A stretch of DNA of 64,000 nt from an uncultured Methanoregulaceae archaeon (GTDB lineage: Archaea > Halobacteriota > Methanomicrobia > Methanomicrobiales > Methanospirillaceae): assembly GCA_963768845.1 (NCBI GenBank), contig CAVYJJ010000014.1:201371-265370 (forward strand), in the 5' to 3' direction. This document shows positions 46,461-61,365 of this stretch, piece after piece (position 1 is the stretch's first letter; every line of letters starts with the position of its first letter). Position numbers and translations under genes: made by a program. A model generated the notes under the pieces. It was not told where the DNA came from, made no database searches, and was given only the letters and a program-made list of their open reading frames with translations.

Positions 46461-47003
46461 ATGTACGTTCCCACCAGGATCTTTTTCACAAAAGGAGTAG
46501 GTGTGCACAAAGACCGTCTTGCATCTTTTGAACTTGCGTTGAGAAAGGCTGGTGTTGAAAAGTGTAATCTGGTATACGTTTCAAGCATATTCCCCCCGAA
46601 ATGTAAACAAATATCAAAATCGGAAGGATTGAAATGCCTTCAGCCGGGGGGCATCACCTTTTGTGTCATGGCAAGAAATGAGACAAACGAGCCTAACCGC
46701 CTCGTTTCAGCCGCAATTGGTCTTGCCCTTCCCAGCGATTCTGATGAGTATGGTTATCTGTCTGAACATCATGCTTTTGGAGAAACACAGGAAAAAACCG
46801 GTGAATATGCTGAGGATCTTGCAGCAACGATGCTCGCAACAACACTTGGTATCGAATTCGATGTAAATGCTGCCTGGTCAGAGCGCGAACAGACCTATAA
46901 AGCGAGTGGAAAAATTATTAAAACCCAGAATGTCTGCCAGTCAGCAGAAGGGGACAAAAATGGTCTCTGGACCACCACAATTGCTGTGGCAGTATTTTTA
47001 TAA
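46461..47003 (+). CDS. pdaD: Pyruvoyl-dependent arginine decarboxylase
   Basis: [21 protein letters not shown] self-cleavage site, [22 protein letters not shown]. Confidence 0.92.
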
Positions 47004-47078: not shown

Positions 47079-47837
47079 TTATTTTTCATGCGCAGATTTG
47101 ATTATTATCCTGACAAGATCAAGGACTGCGCCCAGAGCCGGGCTGTTGACAGGAATTTGTGATACCGGTGTTGCAGCAAGGTCCGCAGCCTCGACCAGTG
47201 GATCATCCGGAATTATCGCTATGGGTGTATCATTCCCAAAATCAACCGGGGCTGTTCCTGATTTGTACCGGTTAAAAACAATAAAAATTTTTTCCTTTTC
47301 AAGCCCGAGCTGAGTTGCGATTTCACGTATACGCGCAATCGTACGCAATCCACGTGCCCCGGGATCGCTTACGATCAACAGCATATCCGGCTTTCCGATT
47401 GTTCCCCTGCTGATATGCTCCATACCAGCCTCAGTATCGATTACGATGAACCGGTAATCACGCTCAAGCCGGGTTATACATTCTGATAATAAATCGTTGG
47501 CGAAACAATAACATCCACTACCCTCCGGACGACCCATTGCGATAAGATCAAACCCCTTTGCTTCCACCAGAGCCTGGCGGAAACGGAACCTCACATAATC
47601 GTGCCGGTTCATCCCCGGGGGTATATGCCGGGTGAATGCTTCTTCCCGCATGCACCCCAGCGTTTCATGAACAGTTACTCCAAGCGCTTCGTGGAGGTTT
47701 GCATTCGGGTCTGCATCGACCGCGAGAACGGGAGTTTCCCCCTGCTCGATAAGCGAACGGATGATAAGGGAACTTACCGTCGTCTTACCGGTCCCGCCCT
47801 TACCTGACAGTGCAATGATGAATGGATGGTGTGCCAT
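47079..47837 (-). CDS. cooC: CooC/AcsF nickel-insertion ATPase
   Basis: SGKGGTGKTT, AVDADPNANL, MGRPEGSGCYC, DTEAGMEHISRG. Confidence 0.9.
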   Translation of the reverse strand: MAHHPFIIALSGKGGTGKTTVSSLIIRSLIEQGETPVLAVDADPNANLHEALGVTVHETLGCMREEAFTRHIPPGMNRHDYVRFRFRQALVEAKGFDLIAMGRPEGSGCYCFANDLLSECITRLERDYRFIVIDTEAGMEHISRGTIGKPDMLLIVSDPGARGLRTIARIREIATQLGLEKEKIFIVFNRYKSGTAPVDFGNDTPIAIIPDDPLVEAADLAATPVSQIPVNSPALGAVLDLVRIIIKSAHEK

Positions 47838-47867
47838 AAAAAGTCCTTCGTTTATCCTGACCCGAAG

Positions 47868-48908
47868 TTATTCTCCGTATTCTTGGTGCCGGATACGCTG
47901 CGAGATCTGTTCGGCTGTCTGCATGATAGCAATGGCCCCGTTCCGGTCAGCAAACCGTATACCACAGCTTGGTGTGATAAGGGACTGTGCATCAAAAAGA
48001 TGCTCATCCATACATGAGCAAAGCTGGGTTCTGACAGCAAGATACTTCTGATACAAGGTTTCAGGAGTCTCGGATTCAAAGATTTTGTATTCTGCAGGAA
48101 CGATACCCCAGGCTACCACTCCTCCTTGTTCCATATAAGTAACCAGCGAATCCGAAAACAGCAGGAACTCCTTTGCTGTTGTGTATGCATCGAGGGAAAT
48201 AACTGATGGCCTGAGATCCAGCACGAATTCCCAGTCTGTATTTGAGCAGCAATGGATTCCAAGCCCGCCTTCGACTAATGCAGAGACATCCTCCCAGCCG
48301 GATCTCACCGTATCCTGATCAATTGTCACAACAGATGATCCCAGTGAAGCGAAGTAAGGCTCGTTCAAAACAACAAGTGTTTCTTTTACACCGGTCCGGT
48401 TTCTCATCTCCATCTCGCACCATCGGGCCTTGAGAGCGATCATTTTTGAGAGCACATCTGCAAGTTGCGAATCATAGTAGATTGGACGCTTGTTTGAATC
48501 AACCACCTGCATACCAAATGTGACCGGCCCTGTCACCTGGCATTTCAGTACCATTGCATGAGAAAGTTCATGGTTCATCATTTCGATAAAACCTGACGCG
48601 AACTCCTCGTGGAGACCGTAGGGAGTATAGTTGCATTCAACATAATCCATGTAGACTTTTTCAATATCGGCAGTGTGGTCAGTGGTGCTGTCATAGAGGA
48701 GCCGGTTTTCCCGGATAATACGTCCTGGCAATTGTTCGGAATCACAAAAGACAATACTTTCAAGTTCCCCATGGTCCGGGAGGGAGGGTATATAGATGAA
48801 TTTCTGAAATATGTCCAGAACATCATTACATGCAACAACTGGATCCGTATGGGGAAGTGCACCGACTCCGGTTGCAAGGGAATTTGGCGAAGGGATCATC
48901 TTTGCCAT
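47868..48908 (-). CDS. Folate-independent core-MetE methionine synthase (MesB-like, methylcobamide:homocysteine methyltransferase)
   Basis: 346 aa single barrel; TGVGALPHTDP, KCQVTGPVTFG, LNEPY, Zn ligands GIHCCSNTDW and LITPSCG; no N-terminal folate-binding half. Confidence 0.78.
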   Translation of the reverse strand: MAKMIPSPNSLATGVGALPHTDPVVACNDVLDIFQKFIYIPSLPDHGELESIVFCDSEQLPGRIIRENRLLYDSTTDHTADIEKVYMDYVECNYTPYGLHEEFASGFIEMMNHELSHAMVLKCQVTGPVTFGMQVVDSNKRPIYYDSQLADVLSKMIALKARWCEMEMRNRTGVKETLVVLNEPYFASLGSSVVTIDQDTVRSGWEDVSALVEGGLGIHCCSNTDWEFVLDLRPSVISLDAYTTAKEFLLFSDSLVTYMEQGGVVAWGIVPAEYKIFESETPETLYQKYLAVRTQLCSCMDEHLFDAQSLITPSCGIRFADRNGAIAIMQTAEQISQRIRHQEYGE

Positions 48909-48912
48909 GTAA

Positions 48913-50814
48913 TCAGCCGCTCCTGAGTCTGCAGGCCTCAAGAAGCTTCTGGACCATAGGGAACAAGGTAAGATCAGTATGGGGTAAGAACGTACTTGAG
49001 GTATACTCATCCATAAATGATGGTTCTGCATTCAGTTCGATATACGCAATCCGGGATGCAATCTGGTCGAGCGTTTTTCGCGCCCTTCGGTTATTAAGCG
49101 CGAGATTTGCCCCGGTCACAGCCCCGTTTCCGATATTTTTAATCCTGTCGAGTCCGATCTCCGGGAACAATCCGATGATCGTGGCATTTTTCTTATCCAG
49201 ATAATTACCAAAAGCGCCGGCTAAATAAATGGTGACGATATCATGCCTGTTCACTCCAGCCTCTTTCATCAGCGTCACACATGCGGCATGGATCGACGCC
49301 TTGCTCATGATGAGGTTCTTGATATCATTTTCCGTGATGACAATATCTTTCCCGAGGTCAGTTTCCGCAGCCCAGGCAACAACAAATTCCGGGAAATGGG
49401 CACTGGTACGGATTCTTTTATTGTCTCTCCCGGTGTTAATACGGCCGGTCCGGTCAATAACACATGCCGAGATGAGTTCTGCCAGCAGGTCGATTAAACC
49501 GGAGCCGGTGATGCCACGGGGTTTGATGTTATTGATGGTAGTATATACTGTATCAAGAGTGACGGGATCTACCGTAATTTTCTCAATCGCCCCGGGATTT
49601 GCCCGCATTCCAAAAAGCACTTCACCACCTTCAAGCGCAGGTCCGGCAGCCCCGGCGCAGGAAAACATCCATTCTTTGTTTCCAAGCACAATTTCAAAGT
49701 TGGTCCCGATATCAATCAGGAGCGAGATCTCTTCACGGTCGCTCATACCGCATGCAAGTATATCAGCAACAATATCGCCGCCAATGAAATCACTTACCGC
49801 CGGGAAGACGAACAGCCCGCTATTCTCATTTATTGAAATTCCAATTCTGCCTGCTGCAACTGAGAGCGCCCGCTGGACAACCGGAACATACGGCTCTGCG
49901 ATGATGTATGCCGGATCGATGCCAAGAAGCATATGCGACATAACCGTATTACCGGCAATGACAACCTCATAAATATCCTCGCGGTCAATCCCGCCGGTAT
50001 TTGAGGCTGAGGTTATTGCTGCATTTATGCTCTCAGCAGCGAGGGCCTGGAGTTTCACCAGCCCGTTTTTCCGTGCAAAATTCACGCGGGCAAGAATATC
50101 TTCACCGCAGCTAATCTGTTTATTATAATTTGAAGCAATGGCAGCAATCCTGCCATTGACCAGGTCCCAGAGATGAACGACGACTGTGGTTGTTCCAAGA
50201 TCAACTGCAGCACCAAACAACCGATCCGAAGTATCATTTTCCTGAATATCAATAAGACGGTAACCCCCGGGAACAAGGGCAATTGTTGCGGTGACTTTCC
50301 AGTCACTGTGACGAAGGAGTGTGGGTATTTCACGCATAACTTCAAGCGGAACATAGACCTTTTCCGCAACCGGTCCACCGATCTTCTGGATGCCCCACAA
50401 AAGGCGGGTCAGATCCGGTGATGGGTCTGTGAGCGTTGGTGGCTGGAGTTCGACATAATACTTTTTGACAGATGGGTGGAAATCGATCTCTGTTTCGATG
50501 CCTGCCATAAGGATTTTTTGTTCCTGGATAAGGGTACGATCAGGAATAAATACCTGAAGATCACCCTGCACAAGGGTCTCGCAGGCAAGACAGGCGCCTT
50601 TTTTTAGTTCAGCCTCATCAAAAAAACGCGAATATTTCTGACAATCGAATTGTGTTTTTCCGCTTTGGACATACACCACGCACTTACCACATTTGCCCTG
50701 TCCACCGCAGACAACATTGATGTTCAGACCAGCTTTCTGGGCAGCATCAAGGATGGTGCTCCCACGTGCGACGTCAATTTTGCGATAACTGGGAAGAAAT
50801 GTTACCGTGCGCAT
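48913..50814 (-). CDS. ATP-dependent reductive activator of corrinoid proteins (RACo/RamA-like; 2Fe-2S plus ASKHA)
   Basis: CGGQGKCGKC...LAC 2Fe-2S motif, DLGTTT, DIGTNFEI, AAGPALEG, GSGLID, LAGAFG. Confidence 0.9.
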   Translation of the reverse strand: MRTVTFLPSYRKIDVARGSTILDAAQKAGLNINVVCGGQGKCGKCVVYVQSGKTQFDCQKYSRFFDEAELKKGACLACETLVQGDLQVFIPDRTLIQEQKILMAGIETEIDFHPSVKKYYVELQPPTLTDPSPDLTRLLWGIQKIGGPVAEKVYVPLEVMREIPTLLRHSDWKVTATIALVPGGYRLIDIQENDTSDRLFGAAVDLGTTTVVVHLWDLVNGRIAAIASNYNKQISCGEDILARVNFARKNGLVKLQALAAESINAAITSASNTGGIDREDIYEVVIAGNTVMSHMLLGIDPAYIIAEPYVPVVQRALSVAAGRIGISINENSGLFVFPAVSDFIGGDIVADILACGMSDREEISLLIDIGTNFEIVLGNKEWMFSCAGAAGPALEGGEVLFGMRANPGAIEKITVDPVTLDTVYTTINNIKPRGITGSGLIDLLAELISACVIDRTGRINTGRDNKRIRTSAHFPEFVVAWAAETDLGKDIVITENDIKNLIMSKASIHAACVTLMKEAGVNRHDIVTIYLAGAFGNYLDKKNATIIGLFPEIGLDRIKNIGNGAVTGANLALNNRRARKTLDQIASRIAYIELNAEPSFMDEYTSSTFLPHTDLTLFPMVQKLLEACRLRSG

Positions 50815-50927
50815 GTTGATCGATCCTTTTCAATAGCATTGGGAAGAGAGATAAGAAATATGCTCTGATGGATGTGCGGATCATTTGTTTGAGCTGACGA
50901 TCAGAAAAAAATTATGAATCCTTTTTT

Positions 50928-52272
50928 TTAGGATTCGTGTTTCTTCCAGACCTCATGCAGGAATTCCCCGATCTCTGCTGCATCGCGGGGACCAACCATC
51001 ACGTTCCAACCGGTTGCTTCTTCAATCCTCCCTGATAGTGGCGCAGAATATCCCGGAATAATCAGAATTTTGTGAGATACCTCGCGCTCTATTTCAAATT
51101 TTTTTATGGAGTCGCGCACAAGAGTTTCATTGAGTTTTCCTGCGGCAACAGCCGTCAGTACTGATAGTCCTTCCGTATCGACTATCAGCATAAAACAGGG
51201 AACACGGGTTGCCTCCAGATAACCTTCAAGGGTAAAGAAAGTAAGGGAGAAATTTACCGTTAAGAGGACAGGGGCATCTCTTCCCGGGTTTCCGATCCGG
51301 TATAGTCCCGGGTTCATCTGGATCGGTTTCTGGGGATCTGTGTAAATATTCTGCCTGAGGGTAAGAACTGCTTTTGCGGAGGCCGGGTTAAGAGGGTGCG
51401 TGATGATTATCGATGCATATTTGACAATCCCTAATGCAATTGCAGCATCCTGCAACGTGTGCTGGGCAGCATCAAGAAATATCGGGTAGCCCAGATCCGG
51501 AGACTCCACGCGAAATTGCCAGCTGACGTATAGCAGTTGAGGTAGTGATAAAATCGCCAAGGGATTGGGTGTATGGATCCAGAACCAGTTTTTTTATGCC
51601 TTCAGCCTGGCAGGCTTTGACAAGACTGACAAGATCATCAAGTCCATGAGCTTTAATTACCAGAGGGCACTCGTATTTTTTGGCAAGTGAACACATTTCT
51701 CTCAGATTTTGTTCTGTTGCCGCATGGATGAGCGGTTTGTAGCTTCCGACCTGCACCAATGCCAAAGTGAGTGATTCTATGTTCCCGGATATCAAAACGA
51801 GAGGAAGATCTGCATTTTCTTCCACTATGGAGACTGCCCGGGCGAATATTTCTGCTGAACCACTGGAATTCTCAATCGCGATGCCATTGAACTGCAGATC
51901 AGCGCCGACCCGGGTAAATGACTCATCCCTGATACGGATAGTTACAGCCGCTATTTCTTCAGGAGGCTGGGTATCATATACCTTGAAAAGAATACCCGGG
52001 GGGTGATAGAACGTTTTATCATGACGGTACAGGACAAATTCCTCACCAACCGCAAATGATCGTTCTCCCACGCCGATTTTTACACGCTGGATAGGGGGTC
52101 GGGTGGTTGCACCCAGCACGGTCTTTGCCTGTTCATCCAGGTACGGGCAGTTCTCAGGATCTGCTTTTCCTCCGGCAAGTTTCATCGCAAACGTGAGACA
52201 GGTCGGATCACCACATTCCTTGCAGTTCTTTTTTGGGAGAAGTTTGTAGATATCCAGTGCCTTCAGAGCCAT
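50928..52272 (-). CDS. acsC: Corrinoid Fe-S protein large subunit (AcsC/CdhE; frameshift near 51500)
   Basis: IYKLLPKKNCKECGDPTCLTFAMKL...CPY, LRQNIYTDPQKP, NFSLTFF, GLSVLTAVAAGK, VGPRDA. Confidence 0.93.
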
Positions 52273-52275
52273 GTA

Positions 52276-53232
52276 TCATTTCACCTCCACAAATCCGGCT
52301 CTGTTCCTGATACCTGCAAACGCTTTTTTCAGCATTCCGACCGTTTTGGGATGACGGACACAAATAATCTCAGCACCGGCAACAGCTGCCGCGATACCTG
52401 TATAAAACTCCCATTGCATGGCAACCTCATCCTGCATGGCAGGTTCTGCTTCCCTCACTTCCTTTATTGTCAAAGAATCCACAGGGGAACAAATCATAGG
52501 CATAGCGAGGTCTGAATCGCCTTTTAATGCAGAAAAACGGATTCGCTCCATAGCCGAATAGGAATATTCGAAACCATAACCCAGTGCTCCGGTATAGGGA
52601 TCGATCATAATATGATCCCGCTGCACGCCAATCTCCCGTAACAGGATATTGAGTTGTTTGGCAAGGTTTACATCGATCGGTGACTGTGCGATAAGCGAGT
52701 GGTTGTATGCAAGGGCTGCCGCAGCAATACTCCGGTATCTTCCCGCTTCAGCAGTTCCCAGGAGTACCCGTTCACCTTGGGCGGTCTCACCACACTTTAA
52801 GAAGACCTCGCTGTCGATCCTCGGTTCGTTGCTTCCTTCAATAATCAATGGCAGACCTGTTGCGGACAACACACCCTCAACAGTTTTTCCTACGGACGCG
52901 ATATCGGAAAAGTCTCTCTGTCGCGTGCTGGTCAGGTACAGCCGGACCAGATCGGCACCATAGACTTTTTCTGCAGTCCTGGCCCATTCATTCGCGTCCT
53001 CAACCAGATCCCCGCAGTATTTTTTGATAATTGGCGACCAGAATTCCGGGTTGTCACAGATCTCCAAAGCAACGAGTGGAGCAGGAGAGGGGAGATTTCC
53101 ATCCAGAAAAGGAAGAGTATTCCCCCCACCAATGCAGTATGCGGTATTTCTTGTTCCGCCGTCTTTTTGGGTTGCTCCCAGGATAACCTGACCAATAGCA
53201 CCAGTCCATCCAAAGTTAAGATCATATCCCAT
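52276..53232 (-). CDS. acsD: Corrinoid Fe-S protein small subunit (AcsD/CdhD)
   Basis: GATQKDGGTR, SPIDVNLAKQLN, IDPYTGALGYGFEYSYSAMERIR, VRHP. Confidence 0.92.
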   Translation of the reverse strand: MGYDLNFGWTGAIGQVILGATQKDGGTRNTAYCIGGGNTLPFLDGNLPSPAPLVALEICDNPEFWSPIIKKYCGDLVEDANEWARTAEKVYGADLVRLYLTSTRQRDFSDIASVGKTVEGVLSATGLPLIIEGSNEPRIDSEVFLKCGETAQGERVLLGTAEAGRYRSIAAAALAYNHSLIAQSPIDVNLAKQLNILLREIGVQRDHIMIDPYTGALGYGFEYSYSAMERIRFSALKGDSDLAMPMICSPVDSLTIKEVREAEPAMQDEVAMQWEFYTGIAAAVAGAEIICVRHPKTVGMLKKAFAGIRNRAGFVEVK

Positions 53233-53241
53233 GCTATTACC

Positions 53242-55272
53242 TCACATCAATGGCTTCATGGTGAGCGCCGGGTGGCTGACGCGTTCAAGGAAAGCGATAA
53301 GATCTTCAATAGTGGTCGCAGTATTCTCATCGGCGATCTTTGCAAAGAGATCTGTTTTATTCCGGTCAGTAAGTTTTTTTATTAGCTGAATTTTCAGCTC
53401 TTCTTTAAGCAAAGAAGGCATCCAGACAAGGCGCTCAATGCCTCCTTCTCCCTGTAAGAACCGGTCAGACAGAATATAATTCTTTGAGATCCCTGCAAAT
53501 CCCGGTGTCTGTGCTCCTCCCCCGATGGTTCCCGCAAGCGTTGAAAAGGTCATCCCTGAGGGTGTGATGCCTTTGAATTCGCGGTTCACAACCATGATTC
53601 CATTAACCTCAGGCAACATGAGCGCGATGCATTCAAAGCATCCACAACATGTCATTGGATATTCCATCACACTATACAGAGAACACCGGTCAATTTCCCC
53701 GTGGCTTGCCTTTTTGACAAATTTATTGACCCCATCGTATTCCCCGTTCAGGGTGTTGATAACCGCCCCTTTTTCGATTGGCTGATTTGCACCGGAAGGA
53801 GCGATCTCATACGCAATTTTTCCATCCAGCCAGCTGATAGCTCCACAGAGGGCTGGATGTTCCGGGGTTATAACACAGACATGATTGGGGGCAAATGTCT
53901 GGCAGAGAGTACAGGAATAATAGGTATTTACATCAGTATCCCGCATACCTTTTATACGCGCATCCCTTTCTTCATACACCTTCTCAGCATTTTTTTTTGC
54001 CGCAAGTACCTTTGATTCATCAGTAATAAGCGTGACAGAAACCGCATCCAGCAGTTGGGGAAAATCCATCCGGAATTTACTTGCCAGCAACTTTCCTATA
54101 TGTACAATTTTTACTCCTTTTGCCACGACTTCTTTTGATATCCGAACCCATATGATATCCCGCTGGGCAACGTGCCAGGATCCTTCACCATAATTGACGA
54201 AGTTATGAATCCGTCGCTCGAGAACAGGCTCATAATCTTTTTTCATCGTCTTCCCGGCTACTTCGATGAGGATGGCAAGAGGGTATGCACCACCCTCTTT
54301 CATGGTATCAATCTCGGGTCCGATAACGGTCACTTGCCCATCAGTGACATCAGCTGCAGCACGCATGGATAACAGTTCGAATGCAGGGGATCTTCCTCCC
54401 CCAAACTCAACATACATCTCCTCTTTGCGGATACTTTTTCCTTCAAAAGCAGGAGAGCATCCCATCGGAATGGGTATGGCAGTAATATGAACTTTTATTC
54501 CTTTTTGTTCCAGACCCCGGTGAACAACCTCATCCGGCCGGGTCTTTATCCACTCCCCACCCTCATAATCCCCAAGGGAAAGAATGGGGAAACCGAGAAC
54601 TCTCATTCCATCTACCAATGCAATATCCTGGTCCGAAAGCCCGGGAAATACGATCACGATAGCCTTTGCACGTTCCGAAGCATACGCTAAAAGCCGGTGG
54701 ATATCGCCGGGAGTGACACCCCCGAACATCATCGCGACCCGGGCGATGACATCGACAAAATGGATCCCGTAAAGGGGTGTTGAACCCAGAGGGATGAGGC
54801 GGTACTCAAGTCCCAGCTTTACACCCGAACCGGCAAGAGATGGTACGATGTCTCCTGCAAGGAAGGTAAGCATGTACTTTTCCTGCAATTCACGGCAGAT
54901 GGCTGCTGCACTATCTGAACCAGTGGGTGAACCAACAACCAAAGCAAGCCCAAGGATACTTCCATCGACGAGGGAATAACCCAGTTTTCGTATGATGGTA
55001 TCATCGATAAACCCGGTGTAAGGAGCGGGCTCCTTACCGGCAGCGGCTGTTTTTTCAGCTAGGATGCATTCTGAAGCAACAAGAGGATTGTTGCTGGTAG
55101 AACTAAAAACGTCAAGGGCAGATTTGCGATCATGGACTGCTGTTCCGGTAAGAGCAAACGAAATCGGCAGGTGATATGCGGTTTCACCATAGGAAATTGT
55201 TTGCCGGATGGTGGAGATCATCATCTTTAAAGATTCTTCACCTTTTTTTTTCGCAGTTTCGACGTCGATCAT
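53242..55272 (-). CDS. acsB: Acetyl-CoA synthase, bacterial-type long form (AcsB)
   Basis: A-cluster ligands YSCTLCQTFAPNHVC...LCGA and PMTCCGCFE; EPVLERRIH; N-terminal domain TAYHLP / LVDG; about 676 aa from ATG 55272. Confidence 0.93.
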   Translation of the reverse strand: MIDVETAKKKGEESLKMMISTIRQTISYGETAYHLPISFALTGTAVHDRKSALDVFSSTSNNPLVASECILAEKTAAAGKEPAPYTGFIDDTIIRKLGYSLVDGSILGLALVVGSPTGSDSAAAICRELQEKYMLTFLAGDIVPSLAGSGVKLGLEYRLIPLGSTPLYGIHFVDVIARVAMMFGGVTPGDIHRLLAYASERAKAIVIVFPGLSDQDIALVDGMRVLGFPILSLGDYEGGEWIKTRPDEVVHRGLEQKGIKVHITAIPIPMGCSPAFEGKSIRKEEMYVEFGGGRSPAFELLSMRAAADVTDGQVTVIGPEIDTMKEGGAYPLAILIEVAGKTMKKDYEPVLERRIHNFVNYGEGSWHVAQRDIIWVRISKEVVAKGVKIVHIGKLLASKFRMDFPQLLDAVSVTLITDESKVLAAKKNAEKVYEERDARIKGMRDTDVNTYYSCTLCQTFAPNHVCVITPEHPALCGAISWLDGKIAYEIAPSGANQPIEKGAVINTLNGEYDGVNKFVKKASHGEIDRCSLYSVMEYPMTCCGCFECIALMLPEVNGIMVVNREFKGITPSGMTFSTLAGTIGGGAQTPGFAGISKNYILSDRFLQGEGGIERLVWMPSLLKEELKIQLIKKLTDRNKTDLFAKIADENTATTIEDLIAFLERVSHPALTMKPLM

Positions 55273-55425
55273 CGGAAAATCACTCTGATCATGGGTTGCC
55301 GGGAAAACAGATATAGTTTCGTCAATTTGGGTAAATGCTGACAAAAATTCTCCTGTTCGTTACCAATCCGGTAACAAAAATATTTAACTTCAATAATGAT
55401 ATTCTGTTTAGCAGGAGACTTAAAA

Positions 55426-61293: not shown

Positions 61294-61365
61294 CGCCCCG
61301 GCCGGGACTTGAACCCGGGTCAAAAGATCCGCAATCTTCTAGGATGTCCACTACCCCACCGGGAC
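61294..61365 (-). tRNA. tRNA-Arg(GCG)
   Basis: Reverse complement GTCCCGGTGGGGTAGTGGACATCCTAGAAGATTGCGGATCTTTTGACCCGGGTTCAAGTCCCGGCCGGGGCG folds as a cloverleaf; anticodon loop TTGCGGA. Confidence 0.93.

Follow-up and report, generated by a model that had tools for sequence, protein, structure and literature searches.

What does an acetyl-CoA synthase (ACS) do in a methanogen when its gene sits in one operon with those for a corrinoid protein and a methionine synthase, and not beside a carbon monoxide dehydrogenase (CODH)? The question is raised by six minus-strand genes in a 64,000-nucleotide stretch of DNA from an uncultured Methanoregulaceae archaeon, hereafter the window (positions 201371–265370 of contig C14 in assembly G000, which has 2.12 Mb in 21 contigs and is 67% complete). 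By the names given to its closest protein relatives, the stretch belongs to Methanoregula. From the open reading frame (ORF) listing and family scans, the operon is transcribed in the order acsB-acsD-acsC-RACo-mesB-cooC (Table 1). We lean, with somewhat better than even confidence, towards reading it as the Methanomicrobiales version of a published module built from MesB and the corrinoid iron-sulfur protein (CoFeSP), in which the methyl group of acetyl-CoA would pass through CH3-CoFeSP to methionine as an accessory route. The identities of the genes, the conservation of the operon, its intact catalytic motifs and its independence from CODH genes were observed in the analyses below, and from them we infer in which direction the flux runs, that the acceptor is homocysteine and what physiological role the module has.

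In the proposed pathway, AcsB would carry a Ni-Ni-[4Fe4S] cluster matured by the CooC/AcsF-like ATPase and would reversibly cleave acetyl-CoA derived from assimilated acetate. The methyl group would be passed from AcsB to Co(I) of the AcsC/AcsD corrinoid iron-sulfur protein with release of CoA and CO, and the MesB-like zinc methyltransferase would then move it to homocysteine to give methionine. RACo would re-reduce Co(II) whenever it is formed, and the CO would be released, or oxidised by an unlinked CooS where one is present. The module would run alongside the universal methionine synthase MesA, independent of methyl-tetrahydromethanopterin (CH3-H4MPT) and Mtr. Dehalococcoides mccartyi provides a precedent and CoFeSP is the predicted methyl donor (PMC7005905, PMC7857596); Methanospirillum hungatei has a Cdh cluster yet requires acetate (PMC4704411). 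The same route from acetyl-CoA through the methylated corrinoid protein to methionine had been put forward in a first-pass annotation made from the sequence alone, and it is still the best-supported reading, fitting Deobald 2020 and Price 2021, although as an accessory to MesA. That annotation had also described six closely spaced minus-strand genes separated by 3–113 nt, flanked by a convergent pdaD and a divergent surface-protein gene, and comprising a nickel insertase, ACS, methyl carrier, reactivase and thiol methyltransferase. The layout was borne out by the ORF listing and family scans, with gaps of 30, 4, 113, 3 and 9 nt from the end of cooC to acsB, and the family assignments uphold the parts list.

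The methionine step depends on the identity of the mesB-like product (P0001, 346 aa), for which searching Pfam (E up to 10), NCBIfam and the PDB sequences returned nothing useful and a profile search of PDB returned only 3rpd at E 0.46. The top fold matches of its AlphaFold model (pLDDT 96.6) were MetE catalytic barrels (chains 1t7l and 1xpg, E 3e-7); the model also resembles the single-domain core enzymes 1ypx and 3rpd, and then UroD and the coenzyme M (CoM) methyltransferase MtaA. P0001 consists of one MetE-type catalytic barrel and lacks the folate-binding N-terminal domain, an architecture that it shares with MesB. Zinc ligands of the pattern His-x-Cys, Asp, Cys (HCDC) are described for MesB by Price et al. 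2021 (PMC7857596) and are present here: in a 66-member alignment H219, C221 and D240 never vary and C315 hardly varies, and all four are kept in 136 Methanomicrobiales orthologs.

The barrel and zinc site are shared with MesA, the methylcobalamin:homocysteine methyltransferase of methanogens. Alignment of the P0001 profile with the MesA enzymes of the order by hhalign gave 98.6% probability, with H219/C221 in the columns of H188/C190, D240 in that of E211 and C315 in that of C272, so the third zinc ligand is Glu in MesA and Asp in P0001. MesA differs further in its strong PF01717 match, its length of ~300 aa and its presence throughout the order, whereas P0001 has no Pfam hit and its gene is found in 37% of genomes. 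An exhaustive representative search with P0001 yielded 1224 relatives; those of ~30–33% identity are from Thermodesulfobacteriota and others and bear the JGI name "methionine synthase II (cobalamin-independent)". In a species-genome scan the nearest non-archaeal relatives were from Chloroflexota (Dehalococcoidia and Anaerolineae, 31–36% identity), and tblastn comparisons with the homologs from these two classes gave E 1e-58 to 8e-71, used here as a proxy for the MesB threshold of Price 2021 (at least 130–173 bits to D. mccartyi DET0516). The characterized MesB/core-MetE comes from this lineage (PMC7005905, PMC7857596), and the D. mccartyi enzyme is the only one with demonstrated methylcorrinoid:homocysteine methyltransferase activity (PMC7005905). 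AcsC and AcsD, which a genome with MesB is expected to encode, are encoded here within the same operon. The MesB identity first given to this protein is thus backed by barrel, zinc ligands, Chloroflexota kinship and AcsC/AcsD, but not by its homocysteine-contact residues, which are A17 and N182.

AcsB is of the bacterial type, with three domains including the N-terminal one. Its score is 906 bits with the bacterial "alpha/beta" model NF040764 but 477 bits with archaeal cdhC, its best solved relatives are bacterial ACS chains, and the cysteine ligands of its A-cluster, in the motifs C-x2-C-x9-C-x9-C and C-G-C, align with those of the bacterial chain 8cjb_B. Residues 26–676 align with the 708-aa chain 6ytt; because the first ~82 residues are unaligned with the 730-aa bacterial ACS chains, the N-terminal, CODH-contacting domain appears to be ~46 aa shorter. 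Judged by architecture and model scores only, the cluster is probably of bacterial origin; the top-scoring models of AcsC and AcsD are those named for the archaeal gamma and delta subunits. With the archaeal CdhABCDE complex the operon has in common the A-cluster chemistry and the corrinoid carrier families PF03598 and PF03599, but it differs in the bacterial N-terminal domain of its AcsB, in having no cdhA or cdhB neighbours and in the inclusion of RACo, MesB and CooC. RACo possesses all four Pfam RACo domains, in the architecture of a 2Fe-2S ferredoxin joined to an ASKHA ATPase, and scores 563 bits on NF040756 (AcsV), under the strict model cut-off of 800. The translation of the cooC-like gene, which is the final gene of the operon in every relative, shows a P-loop (GKGGTGKT) and a C-x-C motif (GCYCF).

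Conservation of the unit was assessed in 119 high-quality genomes of Methanomicrobiales, where the MesB-like gene occurs in 44 (37%), including all 10 of the same genus. Sixteen relatives spread over five families share the gene order exactly, as do 34 named loci from metagenome-assembled genomes (MAGs) of Methanoregula, Methanolinea, Methanoculleus, Methanospirillum and Methanofollis. The comparison of synteny that had been suggested at first pass therefore found the six-gene order kept in all 50 Methanomicrobiales loci examined, at protein identities down to ~50%. Some Methanoregula MAGs have 1.4–3.4 kb inserted between acsC and RACo (e.g. L048:3727-7094 and L049:5698-7088), where the window has only 113 nt; the inserts are heterogeneous in content (a thioredoxin-like ORF in one case, an ORF without family in another) and were rejected as a core part of the operon.

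A distant example was found in an uncultured archaeon (L126, contig CAZEQQ010000023.1), which has the same six genes at 31–47% identity. Directly after them (L126:10414-14026) come genes for an HcyBio (PF01837)-ferredoxin protein, a 240-aa unassigned ORF, an aspartate-semialdehyde dehydrogenase and an amino-acid (aspartate-type) kinase. HcyBio performs the sulfur-incorporation step of homocysteine synthesis, and these neighbours make up a complete aspartate-to-homocysteine feed beside the module, the whole being a putative methionine-synthesis super-operon. This gene context points to a methionine role. In the L126 genome, whose completeness is not established, there was no mcrA, and its single Prismane gene (569-aa frame) could be hybrid-cluster protein (Hcp) or CooS. 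Among 46 bacterial mesB loci, mainly from Chloroflexota, no acs genes lie within ~9 kb, barring an acsC trace at one contig end.

CODH genes were sought by whole-genome family searches. On contig C14 there was no Prismane/CODH gene, no second CdhC and no Pterin_bind/AcsE gene. Elsewhere in the genome, cooS lies at C10:13397-15232 (TIGR01702, 674 bits) with a cooC downstream, and the other Prismane locus, on C15, is hybrid-cluster protein. Neither cdhA nor a second CdhC was found on the G000 contigs, where incompleteness bars a claim of absence. The original description of the system as CODH-less is therefore correct for the cluster and for its contig, but not for the genome, in which the cdhA/cooS search proposed at the time recovered cooS and not cdhA.

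Over the surveyed genomes, cdhA is present in 22 of 119 and cooS in 71 of 119; among the 44 that bear the cluster, 16 have cdhA as a separate locus, 29 have cooS, 38 have one or both, and six have neither at E 1e-30. In five of these six, a search of the whole family found no Prismane-family gene at all (G069, G035 and G075) or hydroxylamine reductase only (G096 and G004, the latter a closed single contig, 99% complete). At least five cluster-bearing genomes of 96–99% completeness are thus without any Ni-CODH, and because they carry neither CooS nor CdhA, the module does not need CODH. The absence of Ni-CODH that marks the Dehalococcoides-type pathway is found in these five and not in the genome studied here. 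Frequencies of cooS are similar with the cluster (29/44) and without it (42/75), which, together with the CODH-free carriers, indicates that the operon neither needs nor tracks CODH, and it adjoins a CODH gene in none of the 50 loci. A dedicated CooS partner for AcsB was considered and rejected, there being no sign of one in this co-occurrence.

A MesA-type PF01717 gene occurs once per genome in all 119 high-quality genomes, and in G000 it lies at C13:84369-85112 (348 bits to NF002119). Since MesA is universal and present here, the module would be an accessory methionine route at most. The first-pass annotation had credited the operon with its own methionine synthase and had suggested looking for AcsE and MesA: the operon does contain a MesB-type enzyme, but it is not the sole synthase of the cell, and AcsE was not found in the window or in the genome (67% complete), where the sole Pterin_bind gene is a dihydropteroate synthase (DHPS) beside FolD. 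The Dehalococcoides-type combination of no AcsE with no other methionine synthase is accordingly seen here only in its first part. Adjacent genes at C15:222377-224658 (L041:685-2966) encode FolD (521 bits to NF010775), the DHPS-type pterin-binding protein and a CofE-like glutamate ligase, a cluster that suggests a folate-type one-carbon (C1) branch in this methanogen.

Several points weigh against a methionine route through this operon. With MesA in 119 of 119 genomes, a second route has no obvious need. Serine-derived C1 units could carry C2 of acetate into the methionine methyl group, as in older labelling work. The genome is not CODH-less, having cooS and cooC on C10; 38 of the 44 cluster-bearing relatives have cooS and/or cdhA, and the full archaeal cdhA is carried by 16 of them and cooS by 29. 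Both homocysteine-binding residues are altered in P0001 and in most orthologs, with Ala for Ser at position 17 and Asn for Asp at position 182. The archaeal members are known from genes alone, and both the mesB-acsCD operon in methanogens and the combination of MesA with MesB in Methanomicrobiales were already published in 2021.

The main rival explanation is anabolic synthesis of acetyl-CoA, which we regard as unlikely but as a serious contender. CO, from CooS or the environment, would be joined at AcsB to a methyl group from CH3-H4MPT carried on CoFeSP, with MesB merely tapping the carrier; the methyl group would arrive through an intrinsic or an unlinked methyltransferase. The presence of cooS and/or cdhA in most cluster-bearing genomes, and of cooS with cooC in this one, agrees with such a role, but cooS is about equally common in genomes without the cluster, no CODH gene ever neighbours the operon and Ni-CODH is missing from at least five good genomes that carry it. 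The best-scoring models for AcsC and AcsD are those of the archaeal gamma and delta subunits, and in Methanosarcina these subunits themselves carry pterin:corrinoid methyl transfer, which counts for the anabolic direction; against it, AcsD is the short 318-aa form and no AcsE or pterin methyltransferase was found in the operon or on the G000 contigs. Finally, the operon is the only ACS in 28 cdhA-less genomes, which favours anabolic use, but M. hungatei, which bears such a cluster, still needs acetate (PMC4704411).

The acceptor of the methyl group was considered from the residues that contact substrate. At position 17 (the serine of G-S-x-P, MetE Ser433), 132 of the 136 Methanomicrobiales orthologs have Ala, whereas 61 of 66 members of the wider family have Ser; at position 182 (the aspartate of D-E-P, MetE Asp599) 131 of the 136 have Asn, whereas 61 of the 66 have Asp. 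P0001 carries A17 and N182, in place of the homocysteine-binding Ser and Asp that Price 2021 calls only "mostly conserved" in MesB (PMC7857596). It is therefore conceivable, if decidedly unlikely, that the operon is a stand-alone, CODH-independent methyl shuttle cleaving acetyl-CoA, whose zinc enzyme, without both homocysteine contacts, methylates another thiol or serves a conditional role beyond MesA; one such role may be methyl supply when methanogenesis drains the CH3-H4MPT pool.

A related proposal, that in most Methanomicrobiales the MesB-like enzyme has changed its acceptor to a different thiol (such as CoM or a mercapto-acid) and that the methyl group goes elsewhere than methionine, appears improbable to us. 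The near-fixation of Ala17 and Asn182 would fit such a shift, the more so as position 182 aligns with the invariant Asp156 of MesA, but Ser and/or Asp are retained in the same operon by early-branching Methanospirillaceae orthologs and by one shallow Methanoregula subclade (from a quick IQ-TREE result, in which L126 has a long branch and is not placed securely). Because some orthologs in the same operon keep or regain these residues, the two positions toggle without a change of context. Although every genome already has MesA to make methionine, an Arg is found at position 318, where the wider family has Gly, in most of the MesB-like proteins of Methanomicrobiales, and this arginine corresponds to the invariant Arg275 of MesA. 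The distant L126 operon is linked to homocysteine synthesis, and M. hungatei JF-1 passes a negligible amount of label from 13CH3-acetate to CH4 (PMC11494345). On residue toggling, Arg318, the L126 context and the M. hungatei labelling, an alternative thiol acceptor was mostly rejected.

The window does show one apparent lesion, which the first-pass annotation overlooked. Its acsC consists of two overlapping ORFs in different frames (51472–52272 and 50928–51560), the N-terminal one matching PF04060 FeS and CdhD positions 2–201 and the C-terminal one CdhD positions 206–386, where relatives have a single 447-aa ORF. The 4Fe-4S motif at the N-terminus, the barrel and the corrinoid domain of the large CoFeSP subunit are all present across the broken frame. 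Comparison with the closest relative, which has GTTCCGGAT at this place, traced the break to a single additional base in GTCTCCGGAT. A public metagenome contig with at least 99% identity over 51300–51812 omits one letter at 51503 and restores the frame; it is from a short-read freshwater-sediment metagenome (Nextera adapter ends), and the omission is the sole indel reported across the 8.4 kb compared with public metagenome contigs. Other frame breaks in G000 affect mtrH (C11:8228-9215), the cooC downstream of cooS on C10, hcp (C15:179492-181092) and DHPS (C15:223060-223756), and these gene splits, including that of the essential mtrH, point to uncorrected indel errors, for which reason gene calls in this assembly need caution. 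Because an independent contig lacks the base and the assembly has frameshifts in essential genes such as mtrH, we treat the acsC break as a probable assembly error, not as a pseudogene. That the operon is dead in this genome through a genuine frameshift, as the two overlapping ORFs would have it, is hardly credible given the short-read contig, the breaks in mtrH, the second cooC, hcp and DHPS, and the intact state of all the other operon genes.

The operon resembles two systems already described. Price, Deutschbauer and Arkin 2021 reported mesB-acsC-acsD operons in methanogens, that is, a MesB-family gene in a CoFeSP operon, together with the co-occurrence of MesA and MesB in Methanomicrobiales and CoFeSP as the predicted methyl donor (PMC7857596). 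Their text names only acsC and acsD as neighbours, whereas the unit here has six genes, adding acsB, RACo and cooC; it also occurs in CODH-free genomes and has two homocysteine-binding positions changed in most members. The incomplete Wood-Ljungdahl pathway of D. mccartyi with its core-MetE (Zhuang 2014 as cited in PMC7005905; Deobald 2020) is alike in having AcsB, AcsCD, a core MetE and no AcsE, and there too a transfer of the acetyl-CoA methyl group to methionine has been proposed, CO being released. It differs in that D. mccartyi lacks both CODH and any second methionine synthase, whereas MesA and cooS are encoded in this genome, and in that the module is found here in methanogens, which possess a full H4MPT/Mtr methyl branch. 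In Chloroflexota, moreover, mesB lies away from the acs genes, while here they share an operon. In the genome paper on M. hungatei the cluster is listed and its role given as "undefined".

Our analysis adds evidence for an artefact as the cause of the acsC break, a count of the carriers that have no CODH, the universality of MesA, the linkage to homocysteine genes in L126 and the toggling of two substrate-contact residues. If the preferred methionine route is correct, the "incomplete Wood-Ljungdahl" logic of Dehalococcoides would extend to archaea with a complete methyl branch of their own, and there would be an explanation for the Cdh-like genes long noted in species that require acetate, such as M. 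hungatei. The operon is also a compact natural system of six genes for CODH-free ACS chemistry and direct methyl transfer from a corrinoid protein to a thiol.

Table 1. Features of the operon and its flanks (window positions).
Feature	Position	Strand	Evidence
pdaD, flanking gene, convergent	46461–47003		PF01862
cooC/acsF-like nickel-insertion ATPase, 252 aa	47079–47837	-	Pfam CbiA, AAA_31
mesB-like core methionine synthase (P0001), 346 aa	47868–48908	-	fold, Zn ligands, MesA profile match
RACo/AcsV, reductive activator of corrinoid protein, 633 aa	48913–50814	-	Fer2, RACo_linker, Raco_middle, RACo_C_ter
acsC, CoFeSP large subunit, split by 1 extra base at ~51503	50928–52272	-	PF04060 FeS, CdhD
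acsD, CoFeSP small subunit, 318 aa	52276–53232	-	PF03599; NF003376 349 bits (cut-off 280)
acsB, bacterial-architecture acetyl-CoA synthase, 676 aa	53242–55272	-	NF040764 906 bits (cut-off 800)
Divergent intergenic region, likely operon promoter	55273–55395	.	AT-rich TTAAATAT ~100 nt upstream of acsB ATG
Divergent flanking protein, 151 aa	55396–55851		weak S-layer match

The start of the mesB-like gene was placed at an ATG 5 nt past the RACo stop, as a longer 387-aa ORF would overlap RACo. Judging from its base composition and position, the divergent intergenic region likely holds the operon promoter. No Rfam element was matched within the operon or in its surroundings, and the sole Rfam match within the window is a tRNA gene at 61294–61365 on the minus strand. 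Among other corrinoid proteins of the genome, a full-length HgcA mercury-methylation protein is encoded at C4:24904-25944 (L011:844-1884, minus strand; 451 bits to NF040863), and a second copy at C5:887-1810 (L010:787-1710) covers HgcA profile positions 73–225 only, with 215 bits, under the cut-off of 275. The organism may, on these gene matches, be a mercury methylator.

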